This document shows, piece after piece, positions 43,540-59,650 of a DNA stretch of 64,000 bases. The notes beneath the pieces were generated by a model. The model did no database searches. It was not told where the DNA came from and saw nothing but the letters and a program-made list of their open reading frames with translations. The DNA is from a virus: IMG/VR virus record IMGVR_UViG_3300008259_004660, positions 32,001 to 96,000 of that record; one strand, written 5' to 3'. A program made the position numbers and the translations under genes. Position 1 is the first letter of the stretch. Each line of letters begins with the position of its first letter.

Positions 43540-43549
43540 ACCATTGGAG

Positions 43550-43590: not shown

Positions 43591-43630
43591 TCTCGACTTT
43601 TTATAAAACATCAACCATACTGCTTGCACG

Positions 43631-43900: not shown

Positions 43901-43901
43901 A

Positions 43902-44183: not shown

Positions 44184-44223
44184 TCCTTGACTTTTTATAA
44201 ATTATCCCTAGACTGATTGGACG

Positions 44224-44424
44224 ATGAAAACCTACCGCATCTACACTCCTTGGGACAACATCACCATTGAAGCGAAGAACGCCAAGCAGGCTCGCATTGA
44301 AGCTGTGAAGCAACTGCTTTACGAGATTGAGACAGATTGCGGAGCTTCCCTCGACATTGAGGAAGTTGAAGAAGAGACGAATGGATTTGATGGCGTCGGT
44401 GCTGTTGACCAAACTGGCATTTAA
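44224..44424 (+). CDS. Hypothetical protein
   Basis: Promoter cassette at 44188. Confidence 0.65.
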   Translation: MKTYRIYTPWDNITIEAKNAKQARIEAVKQLLYEIETDCGASLDIEEVEEETNGFDGVGAVDQTGI

Positions 44425-44464
44425 TCCTTGACTTTTTATAATTCTCTGTTAGAGTATTACCACG

Positions 44465-44701
44465 ATGAAAAACGAACTCGCAATCAAGCTCGTCGCTGCT
44501 GCCGACAAGTATCGTGCAGTTGAGCGTAACTATGAGGGTGCTGCTGAAGTGGTCCAATCAGATTACGAAGACCTCATCAGCATTGCTGGTATGATTGAAA
44601 ACAACGAGAGTAAGAAATCCATATCCAATGCTATGTGGAATCTTGACACTCTTGTGCGCGATGTTATTCCTGATAAAGTTTATAACGCTTACAACCGATG
44701 A
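44465..44701 (+). CDS. Hypothetical protein
   Basis: Promoter cassette, CACG-ATG. Confidence 0.65.
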   Translation: MKNELAIKLVAAADKYRAVERNYEGAAEVVQSDYEDLISIAGMIENNESKKSISNAMWNLDTLVRDVIPDKVYNAYNR

Positions 44702-44862
44702 AAACATACACGGCTGAAGTTACTGTTCGTCTCAAGATCAACGCGAACAGTGAAGACGATGCGCGTTATGCGCTTCAAGAAATGGATTATTCGTTTGACT
44801 TTATTCAAGACCGCGCCGAAATTACTAGCTCCGAAATCACCGATCAACTCATCAAGGACTAA
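44698..44862 (+). CDS. Hypothetical protein, 54 aa (not in ORF track)
   Basis: ATGA overlap; MKTYTAEVTVRLKINANSEDDA. Confidence 0.6.
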   Translation: MKTYTAEVTVRLKINANSEDDARYALQEMDYSFDFIQDRAEITSSEITDQLIKD

Positions 44863-44864
44863 CA

Positions 44865-45269
44865 ATGGCTAACTATTACGAACAGGCTCGCACCAATTAT
44901 TTCAACGTCAAGGACGCTGCTGCATTCCAAAAGTTTATTGAGACATTCAGAGGTATTGATCTTGTTGTTCAAGAGCAGACTGGACAGTATGCTCTGCTTT
45001 TTGACGAGACTGGCATTCCTTGTTCTATCTACGACGAGGAGACTGATGACCACATTGATGTTGATTTTCCTTACGAAGTTTCACAACATCTGACCGATGA
45101 CAGCATTGCTGTTTTCGAAGCGATTGGTAGTGAAAAGATGCGCTATCTTTGCGGCTATGCCATTGCGGTCAATAGCAAGGGAGAGCGTGAGGACATTAAC
45201 ATCTCTGAAATCTATGCACGCGCCAAGGAAAAGTTTGGCGTGAAAGAAATTGGCGAGGCGAGTTATTGA
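44865..45269 (+). CDS. Hypothetical protein
   Basis: MANYY..ARTNYFNVKD pattern. Confidence 0.7.
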   Translation: MANYYEQARTNYFNVKDAAAFQKFIETFRGIDLVVQEQTGQYALLFDETGIPCSIYDEETDDHIDVDFPYEVSQHLTDDSIAVFEAIGSEKMRYLCGYAIAVNSKGEREDINISEIYARAKEKFGVKEIGEASY

Positions 45270-45309
45270 TCTTGACTTTTTATAAAATCTAACCAAACTA
45301 ACTAATACT

Positions 45310-45843
45310 ATGGGATACACAACTGACTTCAATGGTGACTTTGGTCTTGATAAGGTGCTCGCCCCCGAGCACAAAGCCTACTTGCAAAAGTTTGCTCAAA
45401 CGCGCAGAATGAAGCGCAAGGAAGAGCTTACGCTTGAACGCGAAGACCCTATCCGCGATGCTGCGGAACTTCCCGTCGGCTATGACGGTGCATATTTTGT
45501 CGGTGAATTGGGAGACTTTGGTCAAGGAATCGGACACAATCAAAAAGGCATTCCCGACCTTGTTGACTATAACAATCCTCCGTCTGGTCAGCCAAGTCTG
45601 TGGTGTCAATGGACTCCGAGCGATGATGGTTATTCAATCAAATGGGACGGTGGTGAGAAGTTCTATCATTATGTGGAGTGGATTGAGTATCTCATCGAAC
45701 ACTTCCTTAAGCCGTGGGGTTACACTCTTAACGGCGAGGTGGAGTGGTATGGCGAGGACGCCAATGATCGCGGCATGATTGTTATTGACAACAACGTTGT
45801 TAAGACCAAGATTGCTCGTATTGTTTACGAAGACGCCGAATAA
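45310..45843 (+). CDS. Conserved phage hypothetical protein
   Basis: MGYTTDFNG ... PSLWCQW ... WDGGEKFY.YVEWIEYLI..FL. Confidence 0.75.
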   Translation: MGYTTDFNGDFGLDKVLAPEHKAYLQKFAQTRRMKRKEELTLEREDPIRDAAELPVGYDGAYFVGELGDFGQGIGHNQKGIPDLVDYNNPPSGQPSLWCQWTPSDDGYSIKWDGGEKFYHYVEWIEYLIEHFLKPWGYTLNGEVEWYGEDANDRGMIVIDNNVVKTKIARIVYEDAE

Positions 45844-45844
45844 A

Positions 45845-46036
45845 ATGAGCAACAAGCAATACTATACAGACAACAAAGGTAGATGGATTGGTTCTGTCAC
45901 CACCGAAAGCAATGGTCGCAAGACCATTTTGGATAACAAAGGTGCTCTACTCGGTCGAGTGCACGATGGTAAGACACTTGACAACAAAGGAGCATTTTTT
46001 GGACGCGGAGATCAATCACAAAGACTGTTCAAGTAA
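45845..46036 (+). CDS. Small beta-repeat protein
   Basis: Three D-N-K-G repeats (YTDNKGRWIG, ILDNKGALLG, TLDNKGAFFG). Confidence 0.6.
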   Translation: MSNKQYYTDNKGRWIGSVTTESNGRKTILDNKGALLGRVHDGKTLDNKGAFFGRGDQSQRLFK

Positions 46037-46042
46037 AATTTG

Positions 46043-46315
46043 ATGACAAACAACGACACCGTAAAAATTCTTATCATTGATAGCGCCAAGACGCCGATTC
46101 ATACAGAGAAGTATGAATTCAATGCCACTGACGCTGATAAAATCAAAGAGACAATTCTTTCATCTCTTAATCGACTTGGCAAAGCAACACATGCATTAAT
46201 CAAGTACAAGAACGAGTATTTTATTGCAGATCATACTGCACAAGGTAAGAATATGTCTGAAACATATTATCGCCACAAGATCAAGTATCATCCGTTTATG
46301 AAGTATTTAGCATGA
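46043..46315 (+). CDS. Hypothetical protein
   Basis: ATG 46043. Confidence 0.55.
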   Translation: MTNNDTVKILIIDSAKTPIHTEKYEFNATDADKIKETILSSLNRLGKATHALIKYKNEYFIADHTAQGKNMSETYYRHKIKYHPFMKYLA

Positions 46316-46542
46316 ACATCTATCATCTAGACATCAAAGATAAAGAAGATCATCAGTTTGACATTGATTATCATTTTTCTCATCCTACAAAAGGTGCATC
46401 AAATCTGTATGATGATTTCTACACAGCATATGACAAGGTAAGTGAAAGTGAGAATGATTGGAACATTGTTGACATTTTAAATGAACTTGGTAATATGGGA
46501 TGGACAAAAGTAGATGTTCTAACGGTAGATGTCTTTTATTAA
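46312..46542 (+). CDS. Hypothetical protein
   Basis: ATGA overlap. Confidence 0.55.
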   Translation: MNIYHLDIKDKEDHQFDIDYHFSHPTKGASNLYDDFYTAYDKVSESENDWNIVDILNELGNMGWTKVDVLTVDVFY

Positions 46543-46821
46543 AAAATTAAAAAACCATCACTTTTTTCTCGACAAATAGAATATATATGCTAAAGTAGAA
46601 TTGTTCTTTAAATAACATAGATAGGTAAGCATCCCTTTGATGAACCTACGGTGCGCATATCGCGCCGCCAGAATAATACAAGCTACAGACAGAGATGAAA
46701 GAAGCAAGTAGAGATAATGGTGGAGAGAAAGCGACAAACAAACATAGACAAAGATCATTGCTTGGTTAAATCGTAGGCTGTGGATGGATGGAGAATCAGT
46801 CGGTTTGAAAAATAATTTTGT

Positions 46822-46896
46822 GGCAGGGTAGAGTATGCGGTAACTCGTCACGCTCATAATGTGAAGCAACGGATTCAAACGCCGTCCCTGCTCCCA
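46822..46896 (+). tRNA. Divergent tRNA with CAT anticodon (Met-like, non-canonical T-arm)
   Basis: GGCAGGG/CCCTGCT acceptor, GAGT/ACTC D-stem, TCACG-CTCATAA-TGTGA, T-loop TTCAAAC with A53:G61 mismatch, 3' CCCA. Confidence 0.6.
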
Positions 46897-46937
46897 ATTT
46901 TGTATGTGTCCTGCGACGGGGCATACAAGAAAAAAAG

Positions 46938-46971
46938 AAAAGACCACGCTCCCGAAGGCGTGGTCTTTTTT
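46938..46971 (+). terminator. Intrinsic terminator
   Basis: aaagaccacgc/gcgtggtcttt stem plus T-run. Confidence 0.75.
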
Positions 46972-47010
46972 CTTGACTTTTTTAAAAAAAGTCTCCAAGA
47001 TGTTCGCACG

Positions 47011-47157
47011 ATGAAACCCTGCGTCAAGGTTGGAAACAAACTCATTCCACGCAAAAACGTGGAGTTTATTGATATTGAAGAGTGTCCTCTTACTGGCAGA
47101 GATATCATCACGTTTGAATACAAAGGCAATATTCACAAGTCTTATCTCTTTATCTAA
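47011..47157 (+). CDS. Hypothetical protein, 48 aa
   Basis: Promoter cassette at 46974, CACG-ATG. Confidence 0.6.
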   Translation: MKPCVKVGNKLIPRKNVEFIDIEECPLTGRDIITFEYKGNIHKSYLFI

Positions 47158-47158
47158 A

Positions 47159-47497
47159 ATGAACATCGACTCTATTAGCATCAATGAGTATGATCTGCCC
47201 ATGATCATTCGCAACAATGTGCGAATTGATTGGGTCAATCTTGGTGAAGGAAATGATGGGGATTATGACCCAACTGACAAGTATGATGAAAACCTTCTTC
47301 GTTTTGATGTTTATCGCTTCGACGGCAAGGAGTGGGAAGCTATTGAAGATGGTAGCTATTGCACTCAAGTAGCTGCTGGTACAGACCAAAAGATTTTGAT
47401 TGAACATCTTCGTCACTTTATGGACACCATCTATGACGATGTTTCCACACACGGCAAAGCAAAGCGACTCTGCGAACAGCTTTCTTGGATTGAATAA
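47159..47497 (+). CDS. Hypothetical protein
   Basis: LGEGNDGDYDP..D.NLLRFDV ... SYCT pattern. Confidence 0.65.
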   Translation: MNIDSISINEYDLPMIIRNNVRIDWVNLGEGNDGDYDPTDKYDENLLRFDVYRFDGKEWEAIEDGSYCTQVAAGTDQKILIEHLRHFMDTIYDDVSTHGKAKRLCEQLSWIE

Positions 47498-47500
47498 TTC

Positions 47501-47537
47501 TTGACTTTTTATAAAATTAATGTAGGATGGTCGCACG
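47501..47537 (+). promoter_or_regulatory. Representative early-type promoter cassette (TTGACT-N16-YANNNT-N7-10-ATG), repeated dozens of times 15.7-59.6 kb
   Basis: TTGACT 47501, spacer ttttataaaattaatg, TAGGAT 47523, ggtcgcacg, ATG 47538; same layout at e.g. 20454, 20816, 22003, 42112, 44428, 45272, 46974, 49241, 49750, 52468, 54161, 55593, 58841, 59306. Confidence 0.85.
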
Positions 47538-48257
47538 ATGAACGAACTACTCCTCGCCAAACTCAAGAAGCTCCTCAATCTCAGCAAGTCCGCCAACATT
47601 CACGAGGCGGAGCTTGCTCTCCAAAAGGCTACGGCAATGGCGGCAGAAGCTGGTATCGACCTTGCGATGGTAACTGCCAAGGCTGACAGCGAGGCTGAGA
47701 AGCTGGAAATGGTGCAGGAGACTGCCTTCAATGGCAAGCGTCTGCCTAGCCTTCAGAAGTATGCCTCTTGGCTCCTAAACAAGCATTTCAATGTCCACGT
47801 GATTTATTCTGGCGGGCGCTACTTTGGTCGCAGCGTCAACATTCTCGGAGACAAGCGTGATGTCGAGTTTGCCAAGTTCGTCAACGAGTTTGTGCAGGAT
47901 GATATGCAGCGCCGTTGGGAGTATTACAAGAAGAGCAACGGTTTGAGCGTGCGCATGAAAGACACTTTCATGTACAACCTTTGGCGTGGGTTGGACAGCA
48001 AGCTGACCGAAGCCAAGGCGGCGGCGGAAACTGCCAAGTTCAACGCTATGCCGCAGGAGCAGGTGGCGGACACCAAAGCTCGTTATGGCATCGTGATTTC
48101 GGACAAGAAGGCGGCGGTGCAGCAGTTCGTCAGCAAGACTTATCCCCGCTTGTCAAGCACAAGAATTTCGGTTCGCAACTTTTCTAACTCGACAGTTGCG
48201 ACGGATGGGTATTCAGTTGGGCGTTCAATGAACATCAGCCGCCCAATCGCATGCTAA
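47538..48257 (+). CDS. DUF2786-like protein
   Basis: LLAKLKKLLNLSKSANIHEAELALQKA N-terminus. Confidence 0.7.
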   Translation: MNELLLAKLKKLLNLSKSANIHEAELALQKATAMAAEAGIDLAMVTAKADSEAEKLEMVQETAFNGKRLPSLQKYASWLLNKHFNVHVIYSGGRYFGRSVNILGDKRDVEFAKFVNEFVQDDMQRRWEYYKKSNGLSVRMKDTFMYNLWRGLDSKLTEAKAAAETAKFNAMPQEQVADTKARYGIVISDKKAAVQQFVSKTYPRLSSTRISVRNFSNSTVATDGYSVGRSMNISRPIAC

Positions 48258-48736
48258 CCTATCGCCAAAATATCACCCACTACCCACAGTTGGGAGCATA
48301 CAACTGTGGGCCTGTGGCCCTTTCCTGCCTCTTTGACACCTCGTTGGAGCAACTGGAGAAAATGGTGGAATGCGACAAAGACAAGGGCACGTACACCACC
48401 AAGGTGGTTGACGCAATGAAGCGTGAGAAAATTGAGTGCAGCCATATCTCCCTTAATGGTGACGGTGAAAACCATCTGTGGTGGTTGGAGCTTAACTCCT
48501 ACCGTTGGCCCATCTACCTTGGTTGTCACTTCATCGTGCAGGGCAAGCGTGGTCGCCCCAGCAACCACCATCACGCTGTGCTGCTCGCGAATGGTATGAT
48601 CTATGATGGCAACAGCCATCGTGAGGAGCCAATCGGTGCTGTCGCAGAGAAGTTCAACAAGAAGTTTGTTGTGAAAGATGCAATCATCTTCCATCATGAA
48701 TTGAAGGGTTGGAAACAAAATTTGGAAGCCGCATAA
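48251..48736 (+). CDS. Papain-fold peptidase (C39-like)
   Basis: Q..AYNCGPVAL ... HHAVLL..G.IYD. Confidence 0.65.
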   Translation: MLTYRQNITHYPQLGAYNCGPVALSCLFDTSLEQLEKMVECDKDKGTYTTKVVDAMKREKIECSHISLNGDGENHLWWLELNSYRWPIYLGCHFIVQGKRGRPSNHHHAVLLANGMIYDGNSHREEPIGAVAEKFNKKFVVKDAIIFHHELKGWKQNLEAA

Positions 48737-48968
48737 CTTTTTTCACGAAAAATTAAATTTTTTGTTGACTTTGTTTGGAAATAAAATATTTATCGGTGAT
48801 CCCTTTTTCTCCGATGAAGCTCATAATTTCCAGTGGTAAAATTTTAAAGGTCAATCACCCAAATCTTCCTATACCAGCCCCCACGCAATTACCCGCGCCA
48901 AGATTGGTCACAGAAAAAAAAGTGAAAAAGCCTTGACATTTTTTATTTTTTAATCATCCTAATTAGCA

Positions 48969-49142
48969 ATGAACACTTACAAAGTACCTGTTACTTGGAG
49001 AGAGTATGGTCATGTCTTTGTCAAGGCAGACAGTATTGAAGAAGCTATTCAAAAAGCCCACGATGAAGATTTGCCCCACGACAACAGCGAATATCTTGAA
49101 GGTAGTTTTGAAATTGATTACGAGGGCGTTCGCGCAATCTAA
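48969..49142 (+). CDS. Hypothetical protein, 57 aa (not in ORF track)
   Basis: TTGACA promoter about 48933; MNTYKVPVTW...VKADSIEEAI. Confidence 0.65.
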   Translation: MNTYKVPVTWREYGHVFVKADSIEEAIQKAHDEDLPHDNSEYLEGSFEIDYEGVRAI

Positions 49143-49148
49143 CCATAC

Positions 49149-49225
49149 GCGACCGTAGCTCAGTTGGATAGAGCAACAGATTTCTAATCTGTGGGTCGTG
49201 GGTTCGAATCCCACCGGTCGCGCCA
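49149..49225 (+). tRNA. tRNA-Arg(TCT)
   Basis: Canonical cloverleaf, ACAGA-TTTCTAA-TCTGT, GGTTCGAATCC, CCA. Confidence 0.95.
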
Positions 49226-49278
49226 TTCTAAAAATAATTCTTGACTTTTTATAAAAATCTGTCAACCTAATCAGCACT

Positions 49279-49746
49279 ATGGGACTAGATATGTATCTCA
49301 GCGCCGAGAAGTATATCTCGGGTTATGACCACGACAAGAATGAGAACTTCGGCAAAGTTCTTGATCTTTTTAATCTAAACGAGGATGATGTTCACAATTC
49401 TATCACGGTCAACATCACCGTTGGTTATTGGCGCAAGGCCAATGCCATTCATAATTGGTTCGTTCAAAATATACAGGATGGTAGGGATGATTGCCAACGC
49501 AGCTATGTTCGCCGCGAAAAACTACTTGAGTTGAAGAGTGAGTGTGAAGCTGCTCTTGCTGCCTACAACAATGGTGACAAGGATACGGCGGAAAACCTAA
49601 TTCCTCCTACTAGTGGATTTTTCTTTGGAAGCACCGAAGTTGATGATTGGTACAAGGCCGATTTGGTTGAAACCATCAAAATCATTAACACGTGTTTGAG
49701 TGATAAGTTAAATGGATTTGGATTTTACTACCAATCCAGTTGGTAA
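49279..49746 (+). CDS. Conserved phage hypothetical protein
   Basis: MGLDMYL ... YWRKANAIHNWF ... GFFFGS ... YQSSW. Confidence 0.75.
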   Translation: MGLDMYLSAEKYISGYDHDKNENFGKVLDLFNLNEDDVHNSITVNITVGYWRKANAIHNWFVQNIQDGRDDCQRSYVRREKLLELKSECEAALAAYNNGDKDTAENLIPPTSGFFFGSTEVDDWYKADLVETIKIINTCLSDKLNGFGFYYQSSW

Positions 49747-49785
49747 TACTTGACTTTTCTTAAAAAGTATCCACACTTCTACTCA

Positions 49786-50103
49786 ATGAACGCTACGAAC
49801 ATCGAACCTCAAACCTGCCACTACATCACTGCCAACACGTTGGCAAAGATGAGCAAGAATGCTGCCGAGGCTATTGATGCCTTGTTCAACTCTGATTTGG
49901 ATGTTAGCTTTGGCGATGCTAATCGCACTCTGATCGACATCCCTCATTTCCTACGCCTATTGGAGGATGGTATGGAGCAGCAGGGTATTTTTTGGGTTCC
50001 TCTTGGCCCCGATGATGACGAGACGCACCACGCTGGTTACGAGGAAATCAAGAACGCGCTTGACGAATACACTAACGAAGTTTACATTGATCTCGAAAAC
50101 TGA
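49786..50103 (+). CDS. Hypothetical protein
   Basis: ATG 49786 after promoter at 49750. Confidence 0.65.
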   Translation: MNATNIEPQTCHYITANTLAKMSKNAAEAIDALFNSDLDVSFGDANRTLIDIPHFLRLLEDGMEQQGIFWVPLGPDDDETHHAGYEEIKNALDEYTNEVYIDLEN

Positions 50104-50115
50104 AATAACACCACG

Positions 50116-50307
50116 ATGAAACTGACGCAATACATCCGCCAACTCCAAGAAATCGCCAAGAAGCAGCCTGACGCAGAAGTGATTTATGCGGCAGACGAAG
50201 AAGGTAATAGTTATTCTCCTGTTTTTTACGAGCCGTCTCTTGGTTATTTTGATGGAGACAGTTTTGACACCACGGCGAAGCCTGTCAACGCCATCTGTAT
50301 CAACTAA
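50116..50307 (+). CDS. Hypothetical protein
   Basis: CACG-ATG; V.YAADEEGNSY pattern. Confidence 0.65.
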   Translation: MKLTQYIRQLQEIAKKQPDAEVIYAADEEGNSYSPVFYEPSLGYFDGDSFDTTAKPVNAICIN

Positions 50308-50316
50308 TTTTAGCTC

Positions 50317-50392
50317 GGGCTGGTAGCTCAACGGTCAGAGCAGAGGACTCATAATCCTTTGGTTAGGGGTTCGAATCCCTTCCGGCCCACCA
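50317..50392 (+). tRNA. tRNA-Ile2 (CAT, lysidine type) most likely
   Basis: GGGCTGG/CCGGCCC acceptor, GAGGA-CTCATAA-TCCTT, CCA; resembles ileX-type rather than fMet. Confidence 0.88.
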
Positions 50393-50402
50393 CTTTTATC
50401 AT

Positions 50403-50588
50403 ATGAAAACAATAATCAACAAAATAAAGGAGAACTCCACACAACTTATTCAAGGACTGTTTCTTGGTCTTTTTCTAACAATGGGTATTTTCAACATCGT
50501 TGATGGCATTTTCTTTTCAAAGATTATGTGGCAGACGAACTGCGGAGTTAATCAGATCATCATCGGTGCAATCATGTCCAAGATTTAG
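50403..50588 (+). CDS. Small membrane protein
   Basis: Two hydrophobic segments. Confidence 0.5.
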   Translation: MKTIINKIKENSTQLIQGLFLGLFLTMGIFNIVDGIFFSKIMWQTNCGVNQIIIGAIMSKI

Positions 50589-50638
50589 TTCTTGACTTTT
50601 TATAAAGAACAAGTACTCTGTGTCTTGTTCTTTTCAAT

Positions 50639-50713
50639 GGTCTTGTAGCTCAATGGTAGAGCCGTTGACTTTTAATCAATTGGTTGTGGGTTCGAATCCC
50701 ACCGGGACCACCA
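50639..50713 (+). tRNA. tRNA-Lys(TTT)
   Basis: GTTGA-CTTTTAA-TCAAT, GGTTCGAATCC, CCA. Confidence 0.93.
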
Positions 50714-50717
50714 ATTT

Positions 50718-50792
50718 CGCGATGAACCCAAAGACAAGGAGGGGGTGGGCTCGGTTCCCACAATAGTGCGTGAAAGCTCGCACCATCGCACA
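50718..50792 (+). ncRNA. tRNA-like cloverleaf, CGG in anticodon position, non-canonical loops
   Basis: GCGATG/CATCGC, CCC/GGG, GTGGG-CTCGGTT-CCCAC, GTGCG-TGAAAGCT-CGCAC; no CCA. Confidence 0.55.
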
Positions 50793-50846
50793 ATTTTTAT
50801 TGACAATTTAGGTAGGTAAGTCATAGTTATCTTTGTTCTTTTTAAT

Positions 50847-50921
50847 GCCGAGTTAGCACAATGGCGGTGCAACTGTTTTGTAAACAGTAGGTTGTCGGTT
50901 CGAATCCGACACTCGGCTCCA
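50847..50921 (+). tRNA. tRNA-Thr(TGT)
   Basis: GCCGAGT/ACTCGGC, ACTGT-TTTGTAA-ACAGT, CCA. Confidence 0.93.
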
Positions 50922-51038
50922 TTTTTCAGACAGAGGTGCAAGTAAGTCGTCTACATCCTCTGGAGTACTGCATAAGGTGCTTGACAGCAGTAAATAACAG
51001 GGCTCATGATCCTGCCTCTTTATCTGAACATTTTTTAC

Positions 51039-51113
51039 GCCGCTATCGTCTAACGGTTAGGACGCCGGATTTTCATTCCGATAATCGGGGTTCGATTCCC
51101 CGTAGCGGTACCA
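51039..51113 (+). tRNA. tRNA-Glu(TTC)
   Basis: GCCGCTA/TAGCGGT, GTC/GAC D-stem, loop TTTTCAT, GGTTCGATTCC, CCA. Confidence 0.92.
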
Positions 51114-51118
51114 ATTTT

Positions 51119-51313
51119 ATGAACGATTCTCATTTACTTCCTCCTCAAGCAGACATTGACGCTGCACTTCAGATTGAAAAGAGTGTGAAGCCAAGTGAGC
51201 GTGAGCGTTATTTGGAGTACATGAACAATGTTCCTATGTCTGACCGCAAGACCGCAAGAGAATTGCGTGATGGATGTATCTTGAGCCAACTTTTCAATCG
51301 TTTTCGCAGTTAA
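51119..51313 (+). CDS. Hypothetical protein
   Basis: ATG 51119 just after tRNA-Glu. Confidence 0.55.
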   Translation: MNDSHLLPPQADIDAALQIEKSVKPSERERYLEYMNNVPMSDRKTARELRDGCILSQLFNRFRS

Positions 51314-51432
51314 AGTTCTTGACTTTTTTTAAAATCTGTTCATTCTATCTCTTGTCAATGAGGTTTGGAAGCCGTCAACTGCCTCATCATTAAATTCAGG
51401 TATTGCTGAATGGCGCGGCCCAATTTTTGTTC

Positions 51433-51539
51433 TTTGTGGCCACAAAAACCGGTGTCAGGGAGCCCACAGGGTTATCCCTTATTGTGGGGAACGCTAGTCC
51501 CACGGCTCCACGGGGAGTCTCCGGAAATCTAGCGCGCCA
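51433..51539 (+). ncRNA. Unassigned structured RNA candidate ending in GCCA
   Basis: GGAGCC/GGCTCC enclosing CCCACA/TGTGGG and AGGG/CCCT stems; 14-bp palindrome TTTGTGGCCACAAA at 5' end. Confidence 0.4.
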
Positions 51540-51589
51540 ATTTTCTCTTGACTTTTTTTAAAATCTGTTCATTCTCTTCTTTGTTCTTT

Positions 51590-51814
51590 GGTAGTATCAA
51601 GACAGATAAAAGTCGCCTTGCGCGATGGAATCAAAGTTGAACAGTGATGTGTTCAATGAAAGGGTTTGGATTTATCACCAAATACCTGAGATTTAACCGA
51701 CCAGCGCCACCATTAAAAGCAAAGCCACACGGCATTGATTCGTCGGAAAGAGCAGCTTGAAAGTGTGAAACTCTTGCGGAACAGCAGAATTCCGCTATCT
51801 GTCTTGATATTATC
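51590..51814 (+). ncRNA. Unassigned 225-nt multi-branched structured RNA candidate
   Basis: 19-bp closing stem 51590-51608/51796-51814 with two G-U pairs; internal hairpins TTGAACA/TGTTCAA, GTTTGG/CCAAAT, AAGAG/CTCTT, GCGGAA/TTCCGC; own promoter at 51548; no plus-strand ORF. Confidence 0.6.
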
Positions 51815-52000
51815 ATTGACTTTCTTTAATTTTTGTTCATTCTCTTCTTTGTTCTAGGGTGCATTGCCAATAGGAAGTACTCACGGAACTACAGTAAGCA
51901 ACAGTTAGTGCGGAACTCGTGACGAAGATTCTGATCAAATCCTAGTTAGCGTGATTATGGATCGGCTCCATCGCTGTTGCTGAAATCTTTTTTGTTCTTT

Positions 52001-52170
52001 TGATTTTCTCTCATTATTCCGCAACATTGTAAAAGGTGAAGCGCGTGTATCGAAAAATGTAATGGGAGAATATTTTTTGGCAGGTCGCTCTGCCGGAACT
52101 CTAAAATCTATGCCAAGCGCTAGTGACCCTTGCCGGTATCACACAGGTTGACCTCTGGATTTTAGAGAAT
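52001..52170 (+). ncRNA. Two further stem-enclosed RNA candidates
   Basis: attttctctcatta/taatgggagaatat stem; GGCAG/CTGCC hairpin; CTCTAAAATC/GATTTTAGAG stem. Confidence 0.4.
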
Positions 52171-52178
52171 ATTTTTAC

Positions 52179-52260
52179 GCAGTGTTGGTGTAGCTGTGCA
52201 ATAAACATAGTTGGCAATCCTGCCAAAAGTCGGGCAGCGCGTCCTGCTCACACTGCTCCA
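52179..52260 (+). ncRNA. tRNA-like RNA with perfect acceptor stem and CCA but non-canonical arms
   Basis: GCAGTGT/ACACTGC-T-CCA; CTGTG/CATAG; TTGGC-AATCCT-GCCAA; GGGCAG-CGCGTC-CTGCTC. Confidence 0.6.
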
Positions 52261-52305
52261 ATTTATCTTGACTTTTTTTAATTCTTCAACGACACTATCA
52301 GCAAG

Positions 52306-52470
52306 ATGAAACTTGAATGCTGCGATGTTGAGTTAGATTATGAGAGTGCTGGACGGCGTGACACCGAGACGATTGGTGGATACAGCGTCGAGTATTTTAT
52401 CTGTTCTGAATGCAAGCAGCGTTATGAACTTATCGGAAATAGTTTGTGTATGACTGAAGAAGAGCCTTGA
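52306..52470 (+). CDS. Small Zn-ribbon-like protein (not in ORF track)
   Basis: ECC ... CSEC; promoter at 52268. Confidence 0.55.
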   Translation: MKLECCDVELDYESAGRRDTETIGGYSVEYFICSECKQRYELIGNSLCMTEEEP

Positions 52471-52503
52471 CTTTCTTTAAATTTAGTTCAAACTGACTTC
52501 ACG

Positions 52504-52704
52504 ATGAAGCCCGAATATCGCATTCAGATTTACGACAAGCAGTACCTTGAATGGAATACTTTTCCTGATGGATGTTTTGATAGTAAAGAAAAGGCTATTG
52601 CTGAAGCGGTTAAGGTTCTTAAGGGGTGGGGTAAACGCAATCACAAGATTCGTTTGATTGAAGTGTGTGAGAAAGTTATTCGGCTTCCAAGCATCAAGAA
52701 ATAA
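52504..52704 (+). CDS. Hypothetical protein
   Basis: Promoter cassette, CACG-ATG. Confidence 0.65.
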   Translation: MKPEYRIQIYDKQYLEWNTFPDGCFDSKEKAIAEAVKVLKGWGKRNHKIRLIEVCEKVIRLPSIKK

Positions 52705-52709
52705 ATCAT

Positions 52710-52916
52710 ATGGAACACCCTCTATATTATGCCATTGATTATGATCTTAATGTGATCAAGTTGGGTTATTTTGACAACGATCATCTTGCTTGGCTTTATA
52801 CTGAAAAAAAGGAGATTGAGTTTATGAAAATTCTTAATCACGCTGAACTGATTACTCTTTACAACAACATTGATGCTGCCACATCAGATTCATTGGCTGG
52901 ACAACCTTTTGCTTGA
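52710..52916 (+). CDS. Hypothetical protein
   Basis: Stop in next -35 box. Confidence 0.55.
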   Translation: MEHPLYYAIDYDLNVIKLGYFDNDHLAWLYTEKKEIEFMKILNHAELITLYNNIDAATSDSLAGQPFA

Positions 52917-52950
52917 CTTTTTTTATTTAGGTCTCCATACTACTCCCATA

Positions 52951-53244
52951 ATGAAAATCAAACTGCAAGAAGCTCTTGACCTTATTCAAGCTGCTGATGT
53001 TGTTCGTGTAACTGATATGGATGGATTTATTGAGCCTATCATCTCATTCAGTGATATTGAAGGCAAGCCAGACAATGAGTTTATGTATATGAGTTGGGAT
53101 GATGAACATGATGAGTTTGGTGCCAGATTTCTTGAAGAAGGCAATGAAGAAGTAGAGCGTGATGGCAACAAGATTGCTATCACCGACAGCGAAGGCAGCG
53201 AGTTTGAGTTTAATCTGTTTCGCCTAGTGCCGATTCTAGCTTGA
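52951..53244 (+). CDS. Hypothetical protein
   Basis: ATG 52951 after promoter at 52913. Confidence 0.6.
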   Translation: MKIKLQEALDLIQAADVVRVTDMDGFIEPIISFSDIEGKPDNEFMYMSWDDEHDEFGARFLEEGNEEVERDGNKIAITDSEGSEFEFNLFRLVPILA

Positions 53245-53328
53245 CTTTTAATACATAGGCGCGTAACCTGACTGCCTATCAACGTGGAGCCAACCAAGCA
53301 CAACTCCACCAATCATTTTAAAAATCAA

Positions 53329-53691
53329 ATGCCTCGTCCAAAGAAGATCAAAGTTGAAGTTCCCAAAGGACCGCCCAAGAAACGTGGGCGCAAACCCAAG
53401 CCAAAGGTTTTGAGCATCAAAACTGAAGAAGGTTACACAGAAATTCCTTTGGATGGTTTGAAATTTCCTTGGACTGGTAATCCAGATTATTTCAAGAGCG
53501 AATCAACTCCATTAAGCATCAGCGAGATGACCAAGGAATCTTGTGCTTATCCCAATCGCTACCTTGATGATCAATGCTTTGGATGTTCCATCTATGATTC
53601 TTGTAGATGTTCTTTGAAGTACAACAAAGAAGATATGAAAAAGCCAGTTGAAAAGGTGAAGATTAAGAAGTTAAGTTCATTCGATTCATAA
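53329..53691 (+). CDS. AT-hook-like basic protein with C-terminal Cys cluster
   Basis: PKKRGRKPKP; CAYP...CFGCSIYDSCRC. Confidence 0.55.
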   Translation: MPRPKKIKVEVPKGPPKKRGRKPKPKVLSIKTEEGYTEIPLDGLKFPWTGNPDYFKSESTPLSISEMTKESCAYPNRYLDDQCFGCSIYDSCRCSLKYNKEDMKKPVEKVKIKKLSSFDS

Positions 53692-53778
53692 CTTATTTGA
53701 AATTAAAGTGTTAGAGGACGGGAGAAAAGGGTAAAAAGTTACAATTTTTCTTGATTTTTTTTAAAAATATGTCAGAGT

Positions 53779-54117
53779 ATGGCCAAGATGAACGCCACCA
53801 AGAAAGACACCGTCCAGTACGTCAAGAATCAACTCGCCACCAACAAGGTGTGGGCGCTGAAGGCTCTGATCCGCATCTATCAGGAGAACCAAACTGCCGA
53901 TGAGCAGGCGGCGAAGGTCACCAGTCACGACAACGGCATTGGTTTCAGCGGCTGTGATGCCGAGTTCCTTTCTAGTCTCGCGGAGCAGTATCTGCGCCGT
54001 GGTAACCTGAGCGACAAGCAAATGAGTTTCGTCCACCGCAAGATGCCGAAGTATGCTCGGCAGGTCATCGCGATGAGCGATGCATCCAAGTTGGACGCTA
54101 TGGTCGTAGCGGGGTAA
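53779..54117 (+). CDS. Conserved phage hypothetical protein
   Basis: KALIRIY..QTADEQ...NGIGFSG.DA.FLSSLA.Q ... LS.KQ ... MPKY. Confidence 0.75.
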   Translation: MAKMNATKKDTVQYVKNQLATNKVWALKALIRIYQENQTADEQAAKVTSHDNGIGFSGCDAEFLSSLAEQYLRRGNLSDKQMSFVHRKMPKYARQVIAMSDASKLDAMVVAG

Positions 54118-54197
54118 CCCCTGCTGTGGGGTGCGCACACAAATCACGCACAATAATTCTTGACTTTCTTTAATTTAAAATCCAAGATACTTGCACG

Positions 54198-54422
54198 ATG
54201 AAATACGGAAACATCAGCAACGTGATGGTATTCAAGACCGAGGAAACTTTCAACAAGGCGTTGGCCCTTCTCACGAAGAACGGTCACGGTTTCGAGATGA
54301 GTGGCTATCCTCTTGCTCTCAATTTCTATCCTGAACACCGCCACAGCTATGTTTATGCTCAGATCGATCTGGCGTTGGCTGGCATCAATGACGGAGAAGA
54401 TTATGGAATCAAGTATCGTTAA
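54198..54422 (+). CDS. Hypothetical protein
   Basis: Promoter cassette, CACG-ATG. Confidence 0.65.
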   Translation: MKYGNISNVMVFKTEETFNKALALLTKNGHGFEMSGYPLALNFYPEHRHSYVYAQIDLALAGINDGEDYGIKYR

Positions 54423-54464
54423 TTACTTGACTTGTTTTAAATTTAACACCAACATATCAGCACT

Positions 54465-54650
54465 ATGAACTACGCTTACTTGTCTGGATACCTTCAAAGC
54501 GCATTGGAAAATCTCGCTTATGATGACAAATTTCTTAAGATGAAAAGTGATGATCGTCGTAGGGATTATCTTCGAGAAATGGTTCGTGAGGCTCAACTCA
54601 AGGCAATTGAATTCGAGTCCGAAGTTAATTCCAAGATGATCAAGATCTGA
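54465..54650 (+). CDS. Hypothetical protein
   Basis: Promoter cassette, CACT-ATG. Confidence 0.6.
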   Translation: MNYAYLSGYLQSALENLAYDDKFLKMKSDDRRRDYLREMVREAQLKAIEFESEVNSKMIKI

Positions 54651-54656
54651 AAATTT

Positions 54657-54950
54657 ATGTCGAACAAAACCAAACGCATCAAGTACAACACGCCGCTGAC
54701 ATTTCCTCAGACATTTACTCTGAGGGAACTGCGAAAGGCAAACGCGAACAAGATGAAGCTGATTACCATCTACTCACGTGTGCAGAATGGAATTGAAAAT
54801 GGTACCATTGAAGAGGTTGGTATTCAACAGCCGTCTGTGTCTCGTCGTGGACGCAAGGAGATTGTCTACAAGATTGTGGAGGTGGTAGGTGCCCCTGCAT
54901 GCAACATTGCACCCATCACTGATGGCAACAGTTCAGACAATCCTTTTTGA
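54657..54950 (+). CDS. Hypothetical protein (possible winged helix)
   Basis: FTLRELRK ... RRGRKEIVY. Confidence 0.55.
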   Translation: MSNKTKRIKYNTPLTFPQTFTLRELRKANANKMKLITIYSRVQNGIENGTIEEVGIQQPSVSRRGRKEIVYKIVEVVGAPACNIAPITDGNSSDNPF

Positions 54951-54952
54951 AA

Positions 54953-55327
54953 ATGAAGTTAACTAATTTCCAAAAGTGGTATTACACTACACTTCCCAAG
55001 ATCTTTGAATCTGGTGACAATGTCGATGGATGGATCCGATTCGAAAGCAAATATCGAAAAATGGATGCATTTTACAATAAAAGATATGGCACAGTTGTGA
55101 AGCGTCCAAAGTTTATTATGGATAAGCGCACTCCGCTTTATTTGCGCGTACCCACAATCAATTTAGGTGATGGATGGGTTCTTCAGCCAATTGTGAAGAA
55201 AACCAATTTAAAGAAAGCTGTCAATGAAATCAAATCTGCACTCAAGAAGCACTCCGCTATTAATCCAGACATTCACGTTGGAAATGTTGGATGGTATGAA
55301 GGTAAACCATTGATGTTTGATTGGTGA
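54953..55327 (+). CDS. Miniature protein-kinase-like fold protein
   Basis: TVVKRP, WVLQP, DIHVGNVG, LMFDW. Confidence 0.45.
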   Translation: MKLTNFQKWYYTTLPKIFESGDNVDGWIRFESKYRKMDAFYNKRYGTVVKRPKFIMDKRTPLYLRVPTINLGDGWVLQPIVKKTNLKKAVNEIKSALKKHSAINPDIHVGNVGWYEGKPLMFDW

Positions 55328-55371
55328 AATTTTCTTGACTTTAAATAAAAATGAGGTCTTAATAACCCACG

Positions 55372-55596
55372 ATGAAATACGAATACGTTGCTGAAAAAAT
55401 TGCAGTGTTCATTACTGCATTGTGCGTTATTTTTTTGGGATCTTTGGTTCTTGCGCTTCCTTTGCTTTGGCTTTGGAACGCAACAATGCCTGAGTTATTT
55501 GGTCTAAAAGAAATTAGTTGGTGGATGGCTTGGAAGCTTATGCTACTCTCATCCATTCTGTTCAAGAATTTCTTCAGCACATCAAAAAGTTCTTGA
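55372..55596 (+). CDS. Small membrane protein
   Basis: LLWLWNATMPELFGLKEISWW pattern; CACG-ATG. Confidence 0.65.
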   Translation: MKYEYVAEKIAVFITALCVIFLGSLVLALPLLWLWNATMPELFGLKEISWWMAWKLMLLSSILFKNFFSTSKSS

Positions 55597-55630
55597 TTTT
55601 TATAAAAATTCTGCGATACTATTCAACATC

Positions 55631-55999
55631 ATGAGCAACACCACCATCGTTGAGAAGCTGAATCTGGATATGCCGCTCACGGATTTCATTCGTGGCGTGA
55701 ACAAGATCATCAATGATCATTGGACCAGTTCTGGGTTTGTCCACAACGATGCTCCGCTTGTGATGGTGGACAGTGTTGGACCCAAATATGCCAAGTTGGC
55801 GGTCTATGAGAAGCGTCCAGCTAAAACTGGTCCGCTTGTGGCGGAGCGGGTGTATTGCTTCTACAATCACACCAACGGCGACCTTCTCAAGGGAAGTTGG
55901 AAGGCTCCTGTGGCCAAGGGTGTGCGTGGCAATGTGAAGGAAACCAATGTGCTGGACAAGTTTGATTGGCACGGCCCCAAGTATCTGCGGGGTCTGTGA
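55631..55999 (+). CDS. Conserved phage hypothetical protein
   Basis: GPKYAKL ... NGDLLKGSWKAPVAKGVRGNV. Confidence 0.7.
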   Translation: MSNTTIVEKLNLDMPLTDFIRGVNKIINDHWTSSGFVHNDAPLVMVDSVGPKYAKLAVYEKRPAKTGPLVAERVYCFYNHTNGDLLKGSWKAPVAKGVRGNVKETNVLDKFDWHGPKYLRGL

Positions 56000-56044
56000 T
56001 TTTCTTCTTTACTTTTTATAAATCTGTGCTAGAGTATACGCACG

Positions 56045-56263
56045 ATGAACAACGAAACTTGGACCGAGTGCTTCAGTCAGTATCGCCTTCTTGGTGGTCT
56101 CACCCAAGCTATGCTGCGCAAGTGGGCGGCGGATTTCTTGGTAGAGCGTGGGTTTGACGAGATTGGATCCTCTGACATCAACCACAGCCTCTTTGATATG
56201 TGGGAGGCGGCGGGCGGCGATTGGCAGAAGGCGATCCTTAACGAGGTAGATGCTCGCAGTTAA
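56045..56263 (+). CDS. Hypothetical protein
   Basis: Promoter cassette, CACG-ATG. Confidence 0.65.
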   Translation: MNNETWTECFSQYRLLGGLTQAMLRKWAADFLVERGFDEIGSSDINHSLFDMWEAAGGDWQKAILNEVDARS

Positions 56264-56310
56264 AATAATTCTTGACTTTACTTAAAACATAAACCAACAT
56301 AAACACCGTT

Positions 56311-56607
56311 ATGATTAATCCTCCCAACACTGTTATCTTCCAATATGTCCGCAATCGGCGGCGGCAGAAGGTCGGCGTCGTTGCCGCTTTGAAGCGAAGC
56401 GACAACACGGTCGGTCTCGGTTATAGTCTTTGCGCTACCAATCGGGGCGACACTTTCAATCCTACCACCGCGCTAAACATCGCGCTTGGTCGGGCTGATA
56501 CCTTCCCCCATTTTGAGTGCAAGGAGATTCCGCAGAGCGTGGAGAAGGACTGGAGCGAGATCTATGATCGCGCCGTCCGCTACTTCAAGGGCTGCGAGAT
56601 CGGTTAA
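56311..56607 (+). CDS. Conserved phage hypothetical protein
   Basis: GLGYSLC..RGDTFN..ALNIALGRA. Confidence 0.65.
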   Translation: MINPPNTVIFQYVRNRRRQKVGVVAALKRSDNTVGLGYSLCATNRGDTFNPTTALNIALGRADTFPHFECKEIPQSVEKDWSEIYDRAVRYFKGCEIG

Positions 56608-56688
56608 AGTTTCCACGGTGGGGAGCGCATACCAGTTCACGCTCACTTTTTTCTTTACTTTTAATAAAAATCTGTCAGTGTTTGCACC

Positions 56689-56913
56689 ATGAACTCTGCC
56701 ACCATCTCCAACAACGAAGTTGCTGCTGTCTACTCTGCTCGCGATGGACGCGAGTATCTGACCATCGACATTCCCAATGGTTGGGATGATGTCAAGAAGC
56801 TGACCAAGAAGGTGCTGACCTACAACGGCAGCAAGTTCGTGTTCACGGGTTGGAACAGCGACACGCTCAAGTGCTACTTTGTTGGCACAAAGAATGTGGC
56901 GACGATTTCTTAA
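56689..56913 (+). CDS. Hypothetical protein
   Basis: Promoter cassette, CACC-ATG. Confidence 0.65.
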   Translation: MNSATISNNEVAAVYSARDGREYLTIDIPNGWDDVKKLTKKVLTYNGSKFVFTGWNSDTLKCYFVGTKNVATIS

Positions 56914-56956
56914 CTTTTTTCTTTACTTTTAATAAAAACCTGTCACTGTATTCACC

Positions 56957-57262
56957 ATGAACTCCACCATTACCTTCGCTGACGCTGGGCTGTTTGCTAT
57001 CGCCGTGACCGCCCTTGAGATGGATGCAACTCCTCCCTACACCGTGGACGAGGACACTCTCACCATCAACGCCGAGGACATTGATGGTGTGGTGGACATT
57101 CTCCACGACAACGGTATCTTCAACTTCATCTGCTATCGCGCCGATGGCGACACGGAGCACGATCAGTTCCGCAGTGATGCGGAGGCTGATGCCGATGCCC
57201 TCGCCTCTGCTGGATTCGGCACTGATGAGGACTATGGCTACTACGGTGGCGACGATGAGTAA
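56957..57262 (+). CDS. Acidic hypothetical protein
   Basis: CACC-ATG; DADALASAGFGTDEDYGYYG tail. Confidence 0.65.
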   Translation: MNSTITFADAGLFAIAVTALEMDATPPYTVDEDTLTINAEDIDGVVDILHDNGIFNFICYRADGDTEHDQFRSDAEADADALASAGFGTDEDYGYYGGDDE

Positions 57263-57458
57263 GATGGTTGGCCCCGCCAGCTTGGACGACATCCTTAATG
57301 GGCCTCGTCCAAGACTGGTGGGTCGGTTGGTGTTTGACCACAAGACCGCGCCGAGCTTGATGCTCCTCACAGAAGATCAAGCAAAAGCACATGACAAGGC
57401 AACACGCCGAGCAGGTTATGGCACTTGTTTAAAAAGAGTTTCGCCACACCGTTCTTGA
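57255..57458 (+). CDS. Hypothetical protein
   Basis: ATG 57255 overlapping previous stop. Confidence 0.5.
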   Translation: MSKMVGPASLDDILNGPRPRLVGRLVFDHKTAPSLMLLTEDQAKAHDKATRRAGYGTCLKRVSPHRS

Positions 57459-57491
57459 CTTTAATTAAAAAATAATCATCATTTCATCACA

Positions 57492-57788
57492 ATGAGCTAC
57501 AACATCTCTAGTTGCTTGATCAAGTCGTCTGCGATTACCAGCCATCCTAATGGTGAACTGACCACACGAGCTTTTGTTAATTATTTTGACAATCAGTTTG
57601 TTGGAAAGTTCAGTCCTGTCAAAGTGGAAAAGCTTGATATTACCAATTCAAATGGTGTAAGTTTTTTTAAGCGTGATGCTGATATCAGCGTTTCTGCTCT
57701 TCGCGCCATTGCTGCTGGTTTAATTGAAATTGCCGATAGTGCTGAACAGGCGCATGCTCGTATGGCTGAATTGAACAAGAAGGCTTGA
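57492..57788 (+). CDS. Hypothetical protein
   Basis: Promoter cassette at about 57456. Confidence 0.65.
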   Translation: MSYNISSCLIKSSAITSHPNGELTTRAFVNYFDNQFVGKFSPVKVEKLDITNSNGVSFFKRDADISVSALRAIAAGLIEIADSAEQAHARMAELNKKA

Positions 57789-57821
57789 CATTGGTTAAAA
57801 CAACATTCAATCTATCTACCT

Positions 57822-58511
57822 ATGCCTAATTGGTGCTCAAACACAATCGTTGTTAGTGGTGAAGCTGCTGATGTTGTCGAATTCAATGAGTGGCTTGGCG
57901 ATGGCAAGGCTCTGCTGTCCAAGATCAATCCTACGCCAACACAGTTGACTGAAACTACCGCTGGGTTTCACGGTGATCCTGAAAAGCAAAAAGAGCTTGA
58001 AAAGCAAGAGCAATCTAATCTTGAACAGTTTGGTCACAAGAACTGGTATGATTGGAACATTGCCAATTGGGGAACCAAGTGGGATGTTGATGCTGAAGTG
58101 GATGATGTCAGCAGCATTAATGAACAGATTATTTTTAGTTTTGAAAGTGCTTGGGCTCCACCGCAGCGTGCCATCTCTGCTATTGCTGAAAAGTTCAACA
58201 AGTTGACCATTCGTCATTCTTATCTTGAAGAGGGTGTTGGTTTCGTTGGATATGATTTGTATGAGAAGGGCGAGTTAGCCAACGAAGAATACAATGAGGA
58301 CTCTGATAGTGATGCTTGGAAGCAGCTTGCGCAGGATGAATTTGGTTGGGAGCCTTGGCCCGACGATGATACTGAACTGGAGCAGGTTGAAGTCACGGAA
58401 GTTCCAAAGCCTGCTGAAAAGCCTGCCAAGAAAAAGGTGAAGAAGACTGCTGTCAAAAAGACTTCCAAGAAAACGACAAAGAAAGTCGCAAAGAAGAAAA
58501 AGAAGAAGTAA
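57822..58511 (+). CDS. DUF1281/Api92-like protein with Lys-rich tail
   Basis: MPNWCSN ... WYDWNIANWGTKWD ... FESAWAPP ... YLEEG. Confidence 0.75.
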   Translation: MPNWCSNTIVVSGEAADVVEFNEWLGDGKALLSKINPTPTQLTETTAGFHGDPEKQKELEKQEQSNLEQFGHKNWYDWNIANWGTKWDVDAEVDDVSSINEQIIFSFESAWAPPQRAISAIAEKFNKLTIRHSYLEEGVGFVGYDLYEKGELANEEYNEDSDSDAWKQLAQDEFGWEPWPDDDTELEQVEVTEVPKPAEKPAKKKVKKTAVKKTSKKTTKKVAKKKKKK

Positions 58512-58537
58512 AATTTGGTGAGGTAGGTGTTCATAGT

Positions 58538-58571
58538 GGCGGGGGAGCGTAGTGGCTCCCCCGCCTTTTTT
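58538..58571 (+). terminator. Intrinsic terminator (copy 1)
   Basis: ggcgggggagc/gctcccccgcc stem plus T-run. Confidence 0.85.
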
Positions 58572-58610
58572 CTTGACTAACTTTAATTTTTAATCTTTAA
58601 TAAGAGCAAC

Positions 58611-58844
58611 ATGGACACCAAAGAATTTAATCGCGATCAATTGAAAAAATGCTTTCTTGATCTTTCAATACGAGCAAAAGAACTGAATGAACCCTACATC
58701 CAAAGTGTAGCAATGGTTCTTGCCGCATCAATTGCAGAAGAAAGTGATGCTGCTCTTGCTATTTGGGTAGGTGAGTTTGCCAAGATGAGAATTGATGACA
58801 TTGAAGATCAGATATTTGGTGAAGAAGATGAAAATGCGCCTTGA
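58611..58844 (+). CDS. Hypothetical protein
   Basis: Promoter cassette; stop in next -35 box. Confidence 0.6.
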   Translation: MDTKEFNRDQLKKCFLDLSIRAKELNEPYIQSVAMVLAASIAEESDAALAIWVGEFAKMRIDDIEDQIFGEEDENAP

Positions 58845-58878
58845 CTTTTGATAAAAAAGAATCATAGTTATCAGCACT

Positions 58879-59013
58879 ATGAAGATGAACACCACTATCA
58901 AGATTCGCAGCCAATTCACCTCTGGTCTTAATTTGGGTGGCTGCACCCACAAGACCAAGAAGGGCAAAGGCAGTTATTCTCGCAAAGCCAAGTATGGCAA
59001 TCGTTGGGAGTAA
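58879..59013 (+). CDS. arfA: ArfA-like alternative ribosome-rescue factor, 44 aa (not in ORF track)
   Basis: HKTKKGKGSYSRKAKYGNRWE matches the ArfA KKGKGSYxRKxK motif; own promoter and CACT-ATG. Confidence 0.65.
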   Translation: MKMNTTIKIRSQFTSGLNLGGCTHKTKKGKGSYSRKAKYGNRWE

Positions 59014-59033
59014 AATAAATTATTTCAAAGATT

Positions 59034-59309: not shown

Positions 59310-59343
59310 CTTTCATAAAAATTAGTTCAACCTTACCCAAGTT

Positions 59344-59631: not shown

Positions 59632-59650
59632 AATATCATAGTTCAACAAT

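Follow-up and report, generated by a model that had tools for sequence, protein, structure and literature searches.

The segment 51589-51815 is probably an orphan, lineage-specific non-coding unit that lies beside the tRNA genes of a phage. It is preceded by a putative promoter, it lacks a convincing ORF, its two ends pair in a long terminal helix, and part of it was recovered from one RNA library. The window, by which we mean the whole 64,000-base stretch of DNA that was analyzed, corresponds to bases 32001-96000 of a 184,824-base IMG/VR virus record with a completeness estimate of 78%. The features on which the description is built are the following.

51548-51575, + strand: putative promoter of the unit, with -35 TTGACT (51548-51553), a 16-nt spacer and -10 CATTCT (51570-51575)
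51581-51589, + strand: TTGTTCTTT motif, directly 5' of the terminal helix
51589-51608, + strand: 5' arm of the terminal helix (inverted-repeat search, folding and genome helix scan)
51609-51795, + strand: interior, with hairpins at 51636-51657, 51661-51687 and 51776-51795
51776-51795, + strand: hairpin GCGGAA/TTCCGC with an 8-nt loop, followed by a T-containing tail; weak terminator-like site
51796-51815, + strand: 3' arm of the terminal helix (inverted-repeat search, folding and genome helix scan)
51816-51860, + strand: next promoter cassette (unit C), the right-hand direct repeat that bounds the unit
51636-51801, no strand assigned: 166-nt RNA contig from the riverine metatranscriptome run X19, lying wholly inside the unit with zero differences

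The terminal helix and the interior

The arms of the terminal helix are 20 nt each, 90% complementary and separated by 187 nt. They form 20 bp, of which 18 are Watson-Crick pairs and two are G-U pairs on the + strand. The initial annotation, made from the letters of the sequence, had described a 19-bp terminal stem with two G-U pairs; this stem was recovered in the same place, one pair longer (51589-51608/51796-51815). Its pairing probability is 0.99, both when the unit is folded alone and in read-through transcripts of 414 nt and 636 nt. With G-U pairs allowed and loops of 60-400, no other uninterrupted long-range helix in the 185-kb genome is as long. Helices of at least 19 bp number two on the + strand and none on the - strand of the genome, and Markov shuffles give 0.16 per genome-strand. 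Exact 13-mer inverted repeats with a spacing of 50-400 occur three times in the window, against 0.48 expected. A chance origin of the helix is unlikely, especially as it fills the gap between the promoter copies at 51548 and 51816 exactly. The annotated position of the unit, from a motif at its start to the next -35 box at its end, was likewise confirmed: TTGTTCTTT (51581-51589) adjoins the helix and the following TTGACT begins at 51816. The long-range helix that ranks second in length in the genome (39662-39680/39884-39902) has 19 bp, G-U pairs being on the + strand, and lies in an AT-rich intergenic region at 39662-40087. This region also contains three copies of TTTAGGTACCC at a spacing of about 95 nt, and these repeats may represent a second promoter type.

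At the two pairs that are not Watson-Crick, G51591-T51813 and G51594-T51810, the + strand has G-U where the - strand would have C-A, and the fold of the - strand loses the outer five pairs of the helix. The initial annotation took these pairs as a sign of selection on RNA rather than DNA pairing. We do not follow it here, as the argument rests on two positions, and both would favor the + strand with a 1-in-4 chance. Over the whole fold, G-U pairs are nearly equal on the two strands (8/70 on + and 9/66 on -), so that the two in the helix are the only strand-specific signal.

The whole 225 nt folds at -71.5 kcal/mol, with z = -5.3 on the + strand and z = -4.1 on the - strand. When the interior is taken alone (51609-51795, 187 nt), z is -0.72 on + and -1.13 on -, and its fold is therefore no better than that of shuffled sequence. 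The MFE and centroid structures also differ over it. The proposed multi-branch interior was thus not borne out, and the expression "closed multi-branch" is an over-reading, because the closing helix alone exceeds chance. A second long-range pairing claimed inside the unit (51623-51634/51735-51745) does appear in the ensemble with P of 0.7-0.8, but without statistical weight. Local hairpins of the interior have probabilities of 0.86-0.95, and positions 51688-51734 are largely unpaired. The longest + strand ORF in the interior has 23 codons when counted from ATG and 38 from GTG.

The hairpin at 51776-51795 carries one of four clustered CGGAAC motifs, which are found on the + strand at 51777, 51884, 51911 and 52094, within 320 nt and in three adjacent RNA units. 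The 64-kb window holds nine + strand copies, an overall number that matches expectation; the cluster may be a shared binding or processing motif. Outside the window (window coordinates ~142,000-153,000), CGGAAC on the + strand and CTTGTTC on the - strand recur densely and periodically, at spacings that are multiples of 9 and 27 nt. This pattern points to a long and highly repetitive coding sequence close to the end of the record.

Promoter cassettes and the island behind the tRNA genes

Six tRNA genes, all on the + strand, were found between 46822 and 51113 by ARAGORN and the Rfam scan of the window. The last one is tRNA-Glu, and a 64-codon ORF (51119-51313) lies behind it. This ORF, which begins 6 nt past the tRNA-Glu CCA end, lacks its own promoter cassette. 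It matched no Pfam family, and no IMG/VR relatives were found with the protein query 51119-51310. After it, about 950 bases (51314-52267) are free of convincing ORFs. At least four promoter-driven non-coding units stand behind the tRNAs of this phage, and its relatives bear different sets.

The promoter role of 51548-51575 is deduced from a layout that recurs throughout the region. TTGACTT occurs 34 times on the + strand and five times on the - strand, and most + strand copies are followed by a 16-nt spacer and a YANNNT hexamer. From 41000 to 60000 the layout is one gene, one promoter, without Shine-Dalgarno sequences. In the mRNA cassettes the ATG is fixed at +36 to +39, counted from the first T of the -35 box, which makes these mRNAs nearly leaderless; the host may be one that translates leaderless mRNAs. 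The geometry of the promoter at 51548 is that found before more than 25 ORFs and before tRNA-Lys. Near-identical copies at 51319, 51548 and 51816 (78-87% over 45 nt) share the -10 CATTCT, the copy at 51548 being 87% identical to the one at 51816 and 78% identical to the one at 51319. In place of an ORF start, these copies lead into CTT(C/G)TT..TTGTTCT. An ATG at +36 to +39 is missing from promoters 51548 and 51816, and the one at +39 of promoter 51319 opens a frame that stops after 11 codons.

Because the promoter geometry is fixed, transcription of the unit is predicted to start at G51583, within TTGTTCTTT and 35 nt downstream of the base with which the -35 box begins. Before tRNA-Lys the G of the same motif is also at +35 (promoter 50592, motif 50625), and the motif precedes tRNA-Thr as well. 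Five of the nine + strand copies of TTGTTCTTT in the whole genome fall within 50625-51992. The motif would thus be the first stretch transcribed from a promoter subtype of "RNA genes". A leaderless peptide beginning at its TTG was ruled out, as a stop follows directly after the same motif in unit C.

Two of the neighboring units are of interest for the island as a whole. Unit C (51858-51990; L002:18557-18637) has its own promoter, a long-range stem (51897-51905/51973-51981) followed by a T run, and from position 46 onward is 81% conserved in a relative (G001, see below). Unit D (52079-52251; L004:18818-19049; L002:18650-18728) is 85% identical in a second relative (G003), and its 3' part is also present in G001. 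In the comparison of unit D with G003, which involves two sequences, six pairs have both partners changed, including three adjacent ones in a single helix, as would be expected of a structured RNA. Judged by this comparison, unit D is better supported as a structured RNA than the unit at 51589-51815, and its compensatory changes indicate that the island contains real RNA genes.

Occurrence in genomes and RNA libraries

No nucleotide match to 51300-52300 was found among 50,697 records of isolated phages (blastn, distant mode), and tblastn with a 764-aa protein of the phage gave zero matches in the same records. Every sampled word of 51300-52300 is present in 14 DNA runs from 10 studies, dated 2019-2025 and labeled lake, freshwater and "fungus" metagenomes. 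Together, these results point to an uncultured but widespread phage of freshwater type. Two features of the genome at large may be recorded here. A DUF1800 gene and a DUF1501 gene lie side by side in the phage genome (31498-34324), a pair typical of Planctomycetota, Verrucomicrobiota and Bacteroidota genomes. There is also a composition anomaly at 10001-12000 (GC 0.46, GC skew -0.36, AT skew +0.33), which overlies a 450-codon ORF (10113-11465) without a Pfam family.

With the helicase as anchor, three related IMG/VR records were retrieved (G001, G002 and G003), with amino-acid identities of 88%, 87% and 64%. They have many small genes in common with the phage, at 45-83% identity, and all three show tRNA-Lys/Thr/Glu followed by promoter-driven small non-coding units. 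The unit itself was not found by BLAST in the whole records of the three relatives, nor by nhmmer or word-7 blastn. In G001, no more than 7 nt separate tRNA-Glu from the promoter of the unit C homolog. It follows that the 64-codon ORF, unit A and the unit described here are extra in our phage, with the breakpoint at a promoter; the ORF is missing in both G001 and G002. In G002 and G003 the same slot holds other small-RNA content. G001 (L002:18855-18915) and G002 (L003:20062-20120) have in common an RNA of about 55 nt that is promoter-driven and closed by GTTGGTTGAG/CTTGACCAAC, and another conserved non-coding segment (GCAATGAAC…GCGCGTGAAAGCTCGCGCC). Both segments are missing from the genome studied here.

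Wider searches gave the same picture. A single-sequence covariance model run on the three whole relative records and 80 loci returned only hairpins of 38-50 nt with E >= 0.1, and no homolog was seen in these 80 further, more distant IMG/VR loci. In 0.93 Mb of related loci together with the phage's own genome, nhmmer, blastn and tblastx detected no relative. Exact patterns of both arms, a 21-mer and a 25-mer yielded no further copy in IMG/VR, and both arms and a 22-mer had no match in 185,579 prokaryote genomes. A 20-mer scan of JGI metagenomes returned six contigs, all of them chance matches of the word alone. Searching IMG/VR with the neighboring proteins 47538-48257 and 51119-51310 yielded nothing. 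The 185-kb genome harbors no paralog, the unit being single copy, and complementarity to putative antisense targets in this genome is not beyond chance. As these searches gave no homolog of the unit, covariation and signs of purifying selection are absent.

Six metatranscriptome runs were found with 11-23% of the words in 51300-52300, and four of these runs, each from a different study, were compared with 50300-52700 as Logan contigs, which report presence in an RNA library and in which strand, ends and level are unreadable. Support for the unit comes from the contig of run X19, a single low-depth contig in one of the four RNA runs. RNA contigs from two studies contain unit C (51897-52000) with two changes, C51942A and T51943A, and with different flanking sequence on either side; the differing flanks indicate that unit C occurs in a different context in a relative. 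Unit D is covered by whole RNA-library contigs from three studies, which start at 52052, 52079 or 52081 and end at 52251, 52264 or 52267. The ORF stretches 51110-51590 and 52325-52700 are uncovered in the four runs, which we take as no evidence. These contigs give a hint that the units of the island exist as RNA.

Interpretation and comparison with known systems

We tentatively favor, as a plausible but still doubtful account, that the unit is an orphan cassette for a small RNA, with a terminal helix by which the RNA ends are clamped or processed out of read-through transcripts. A host sigma-70-type RNA polymerase would start at about G51583, at an early phage promoter of the "RNA-gene" type (TTGACT, 16 nt, CATTCT, TTGTTCTTT), and would read through into the next unit because no strong terminator follows. 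The 5' and 3' ends of the 225-nt segment would then pair in the 20-bp helix and so delimit the RNA within the longer transcript. The helix would most likely serve as an RNase III-type processing site, as an end clamp against exonucleases, or as both, and would leave a stable small RNA whose ends are paired. Such helices act in the processing of rRNA precursors and T7 early RNAs, and we infer RNase III cleavage and RNA stability purely by analogy with them. The product may be an accessory RNA for host takeover or counter-defense, a role suggested by its location among phage tRNAs and small RNAs and by its absence from close relatives. An extension of this account, in which the unit would represent a new class of phage small RNA, with a loose RNA of about 190 nt held by a 20-bp clamp, made early, acting in trans and swapped as a "moron", we regard as highly doubtful. 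Such an RNA might, for instance, act as a sponge or decoy, either of a host RNA-directed defense nuclease or of RNase III, and would be one of several RNA "morons", each with its own promoter, that this phage group exchanges in its tRNA island.

As the main alternative, the same arrangement might be produced by functionless filler between promoters duplicated by recombination, with the inverted repeat as the scar of a recent rearrangement and the transcript as a by-product. The unit is indeed bounded by 45-nt promoter direct repeats that are 87% identical, G001 runs from tRNA-Glu straight to the unit C promoter with the breakpoint at the promoter, the unit is an orphan without a fold signal in its interior, and promoter cassettes are documented as recombination modules in T4-type phages (PMC2839356). 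However, an 18/20 repeat that ends at the cassette boundaries, and in which both mismatches can pair as RNA, is not expected of a scar, and we consider this origin rather unlikely. The recovery of all sampled words in the 14 DNA runs of 10 studies from 2019-2025 also argues that the segment is stably kept, although such persistence may merely reflect a near-clonal phage population. Another possibility is that the helix, perhaps with the hairpin at 51776-51795, cuts or terminates the transcript and insulates unit C, the 187 nt between the arms being functionless. This would agree with the position of the helix end (51815) directly before the next -35 box, with the terminator-like hairpin and T-containing tail at 51776-51805, with an interior that is unstructured and unconserved and, as a weak coincidence, with the end of the RNA contig at 51801. 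A 20-bp hairpin with a short loop would nevertheless suffice for such punctuation, which makes 187 nt and a dedicated promoter unnecessary. Furthermore, terminator-like sites in the region are not significantly above shuffles (4 vs 1.8, sd 1.2), and other cassettes have short hairpins, such as that at 46933-46974. We hold a role confined to punctuation in cis to be improbable.

A mobile DNA element similar to a MITE, with the arms as terminal inverted repeats, would account for the 18/20 repeats around about 190 bp and for their absence from relatives. It is very improbable, since the element is single copy in the 185-kb genome, no copy was found in the relatives or in the collections scanned, including a both-arm scan of prokaryote genomes and IMG/VR, the flanks (…TTCTT / TTGAC…) show no target-site duplication, and the element sits precisely in a slot defined by promoters. 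A MITE-like inverted repeat had been named beforehand as a finding that would speak against an RNA, and the unit, with its one copy and unduplicated flanks, is not of this kind. It is scarcely credible that the segment encodes a small protein, whether in the - strand ORF of 61 codons (51816-51631) or in a + strand ORF of 19-38 codons. ORFs of these lengths do occur, but for the - strand ORF neither Pfam at E<=0.1 nor tblastx against 0.93 Mb of related loci and the phage's own genome gave a match, all genes and 34 of the 39 promoter motifs here are on the + strand, and no + strand ATG is present at +36 to +39.

The small-RNA cassette was also compared with known RNA classes. Among the 4227 models of Rfam 15, none matched 51590-51814 at its gathering score, a check that the initial annotation had proposed. 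With lax filters and E<=10, the element alone gave only chance-level snoRNA matches of 16-19 bits, against thresholds of 43-50; the one suggestive of a C/D-box-like RNA, SNORD72, had E = 7.6, which is chance level. The designation as an RNA of unknown class is compatible with a promoter of its own, the lack of an ORF and of an Rfam family, and one RNA contig, and it holds weakly. ARAGORN finds no tRNA or tRNA-like structure here and the tRNA covariance model is silent at E<=10. A degenerate tRNA, suggested by GCGCCACCA at 51706-51714, was discarded, as there is no cloverleaf and no model match. GOLLD and ROOL are structured phage ncRNAs often found beside tRNA genes. The remark that they are much longer was correct: the unit has 225 nt, several-fold fewer than their ~500-800 nt, its interior has no fold signal and neither family model matches. 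In Y RNA-like RNAs (YrlA) the ends pair in a long stem, and some are encoded by phages near tRNAs. The tRNA-like domain opposite the terminal stem is missing from the unit, and no TROVE/Ro60 (PF05731) was found in the record, which is 78% complete and in which positive controls worked. Retron msr-msd RNAs were rejected: inverted repeats are present, but RVT_1 is nowhere in the record, and the downstream neighbors of the unit are further RNA units and small ORFs. The unit resembles 6S RNA in its size of about 200 nt, in a closing stem formed from both ends and in a partly rod-like ensemble; no 6S model was hit at E<=10, and the fold lacks a two-sided central bubble between long helices.

Phage tRNA islands are increasingly seen as counter-defense loci, and we know of no function assigned to their non-tRNA small RNAs since T4 rnaC and rnaD were described decades ago. 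If functional, the units of this island would be a pool of swappable RNA accessory genes. Taken alone, the present unit adds little, being an orphan with one supported helix; its value lies in the island, to which neighboring unit D is the better-supported entry point. It may be regarded as a further phage small RNA beside tRNA genes, a feature that is real but modest.

Three known systems share parts of its organization. The stems of RNase III substrates (rRNA precursors and T7 early RNAs) are likewise helices of about 20 bp formed from the flanks of the mature RNA. A length of about two turns is reached here at 20 bp with P = 0.99, cleavage being predicted, while the enclosed RNA differs in having 187 nt and no known role. 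PeSL cassettes of T4-type phages (Arbiol et al. 2010, PMC2839356) have repeated strong early promoters, sigma-70-like in type, on either side of small accessory units, and these promoters mark the breakpoints at which related phages differ by gain and loss. Our unit resembles them in its near-identical flanking promoters and in a presence/absence pattern with a promoter breakpoint among three relatives. PeSLs, however, consist of a promoter and a short terminator stem-loop that flank ORFs, whereas here the unit is non-coding and the "stem" encloses all of it. T4 rnaC (139 nt) and rnaD (119 nt) are small stable RNAs directly after the tRNA cluster, next to tRNA-Arg; like the unit, they are non-coding, lie on the same strand as the tRNAs and have no assigned function. 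They share no sequence similarity with it, are shorter and lack the 20-bp terminal helix, and rnaC carries a tRNA T arm (GGGTTCGAATCCC) that the unit does not have. To our knowledge, they also have no promoter of their own inside the tRNA cluster. The literature on small RNAs of phage tRNA islands offered no closer precedent, and by context T4 rnaC and rnaD would be the closest analog of the unit.
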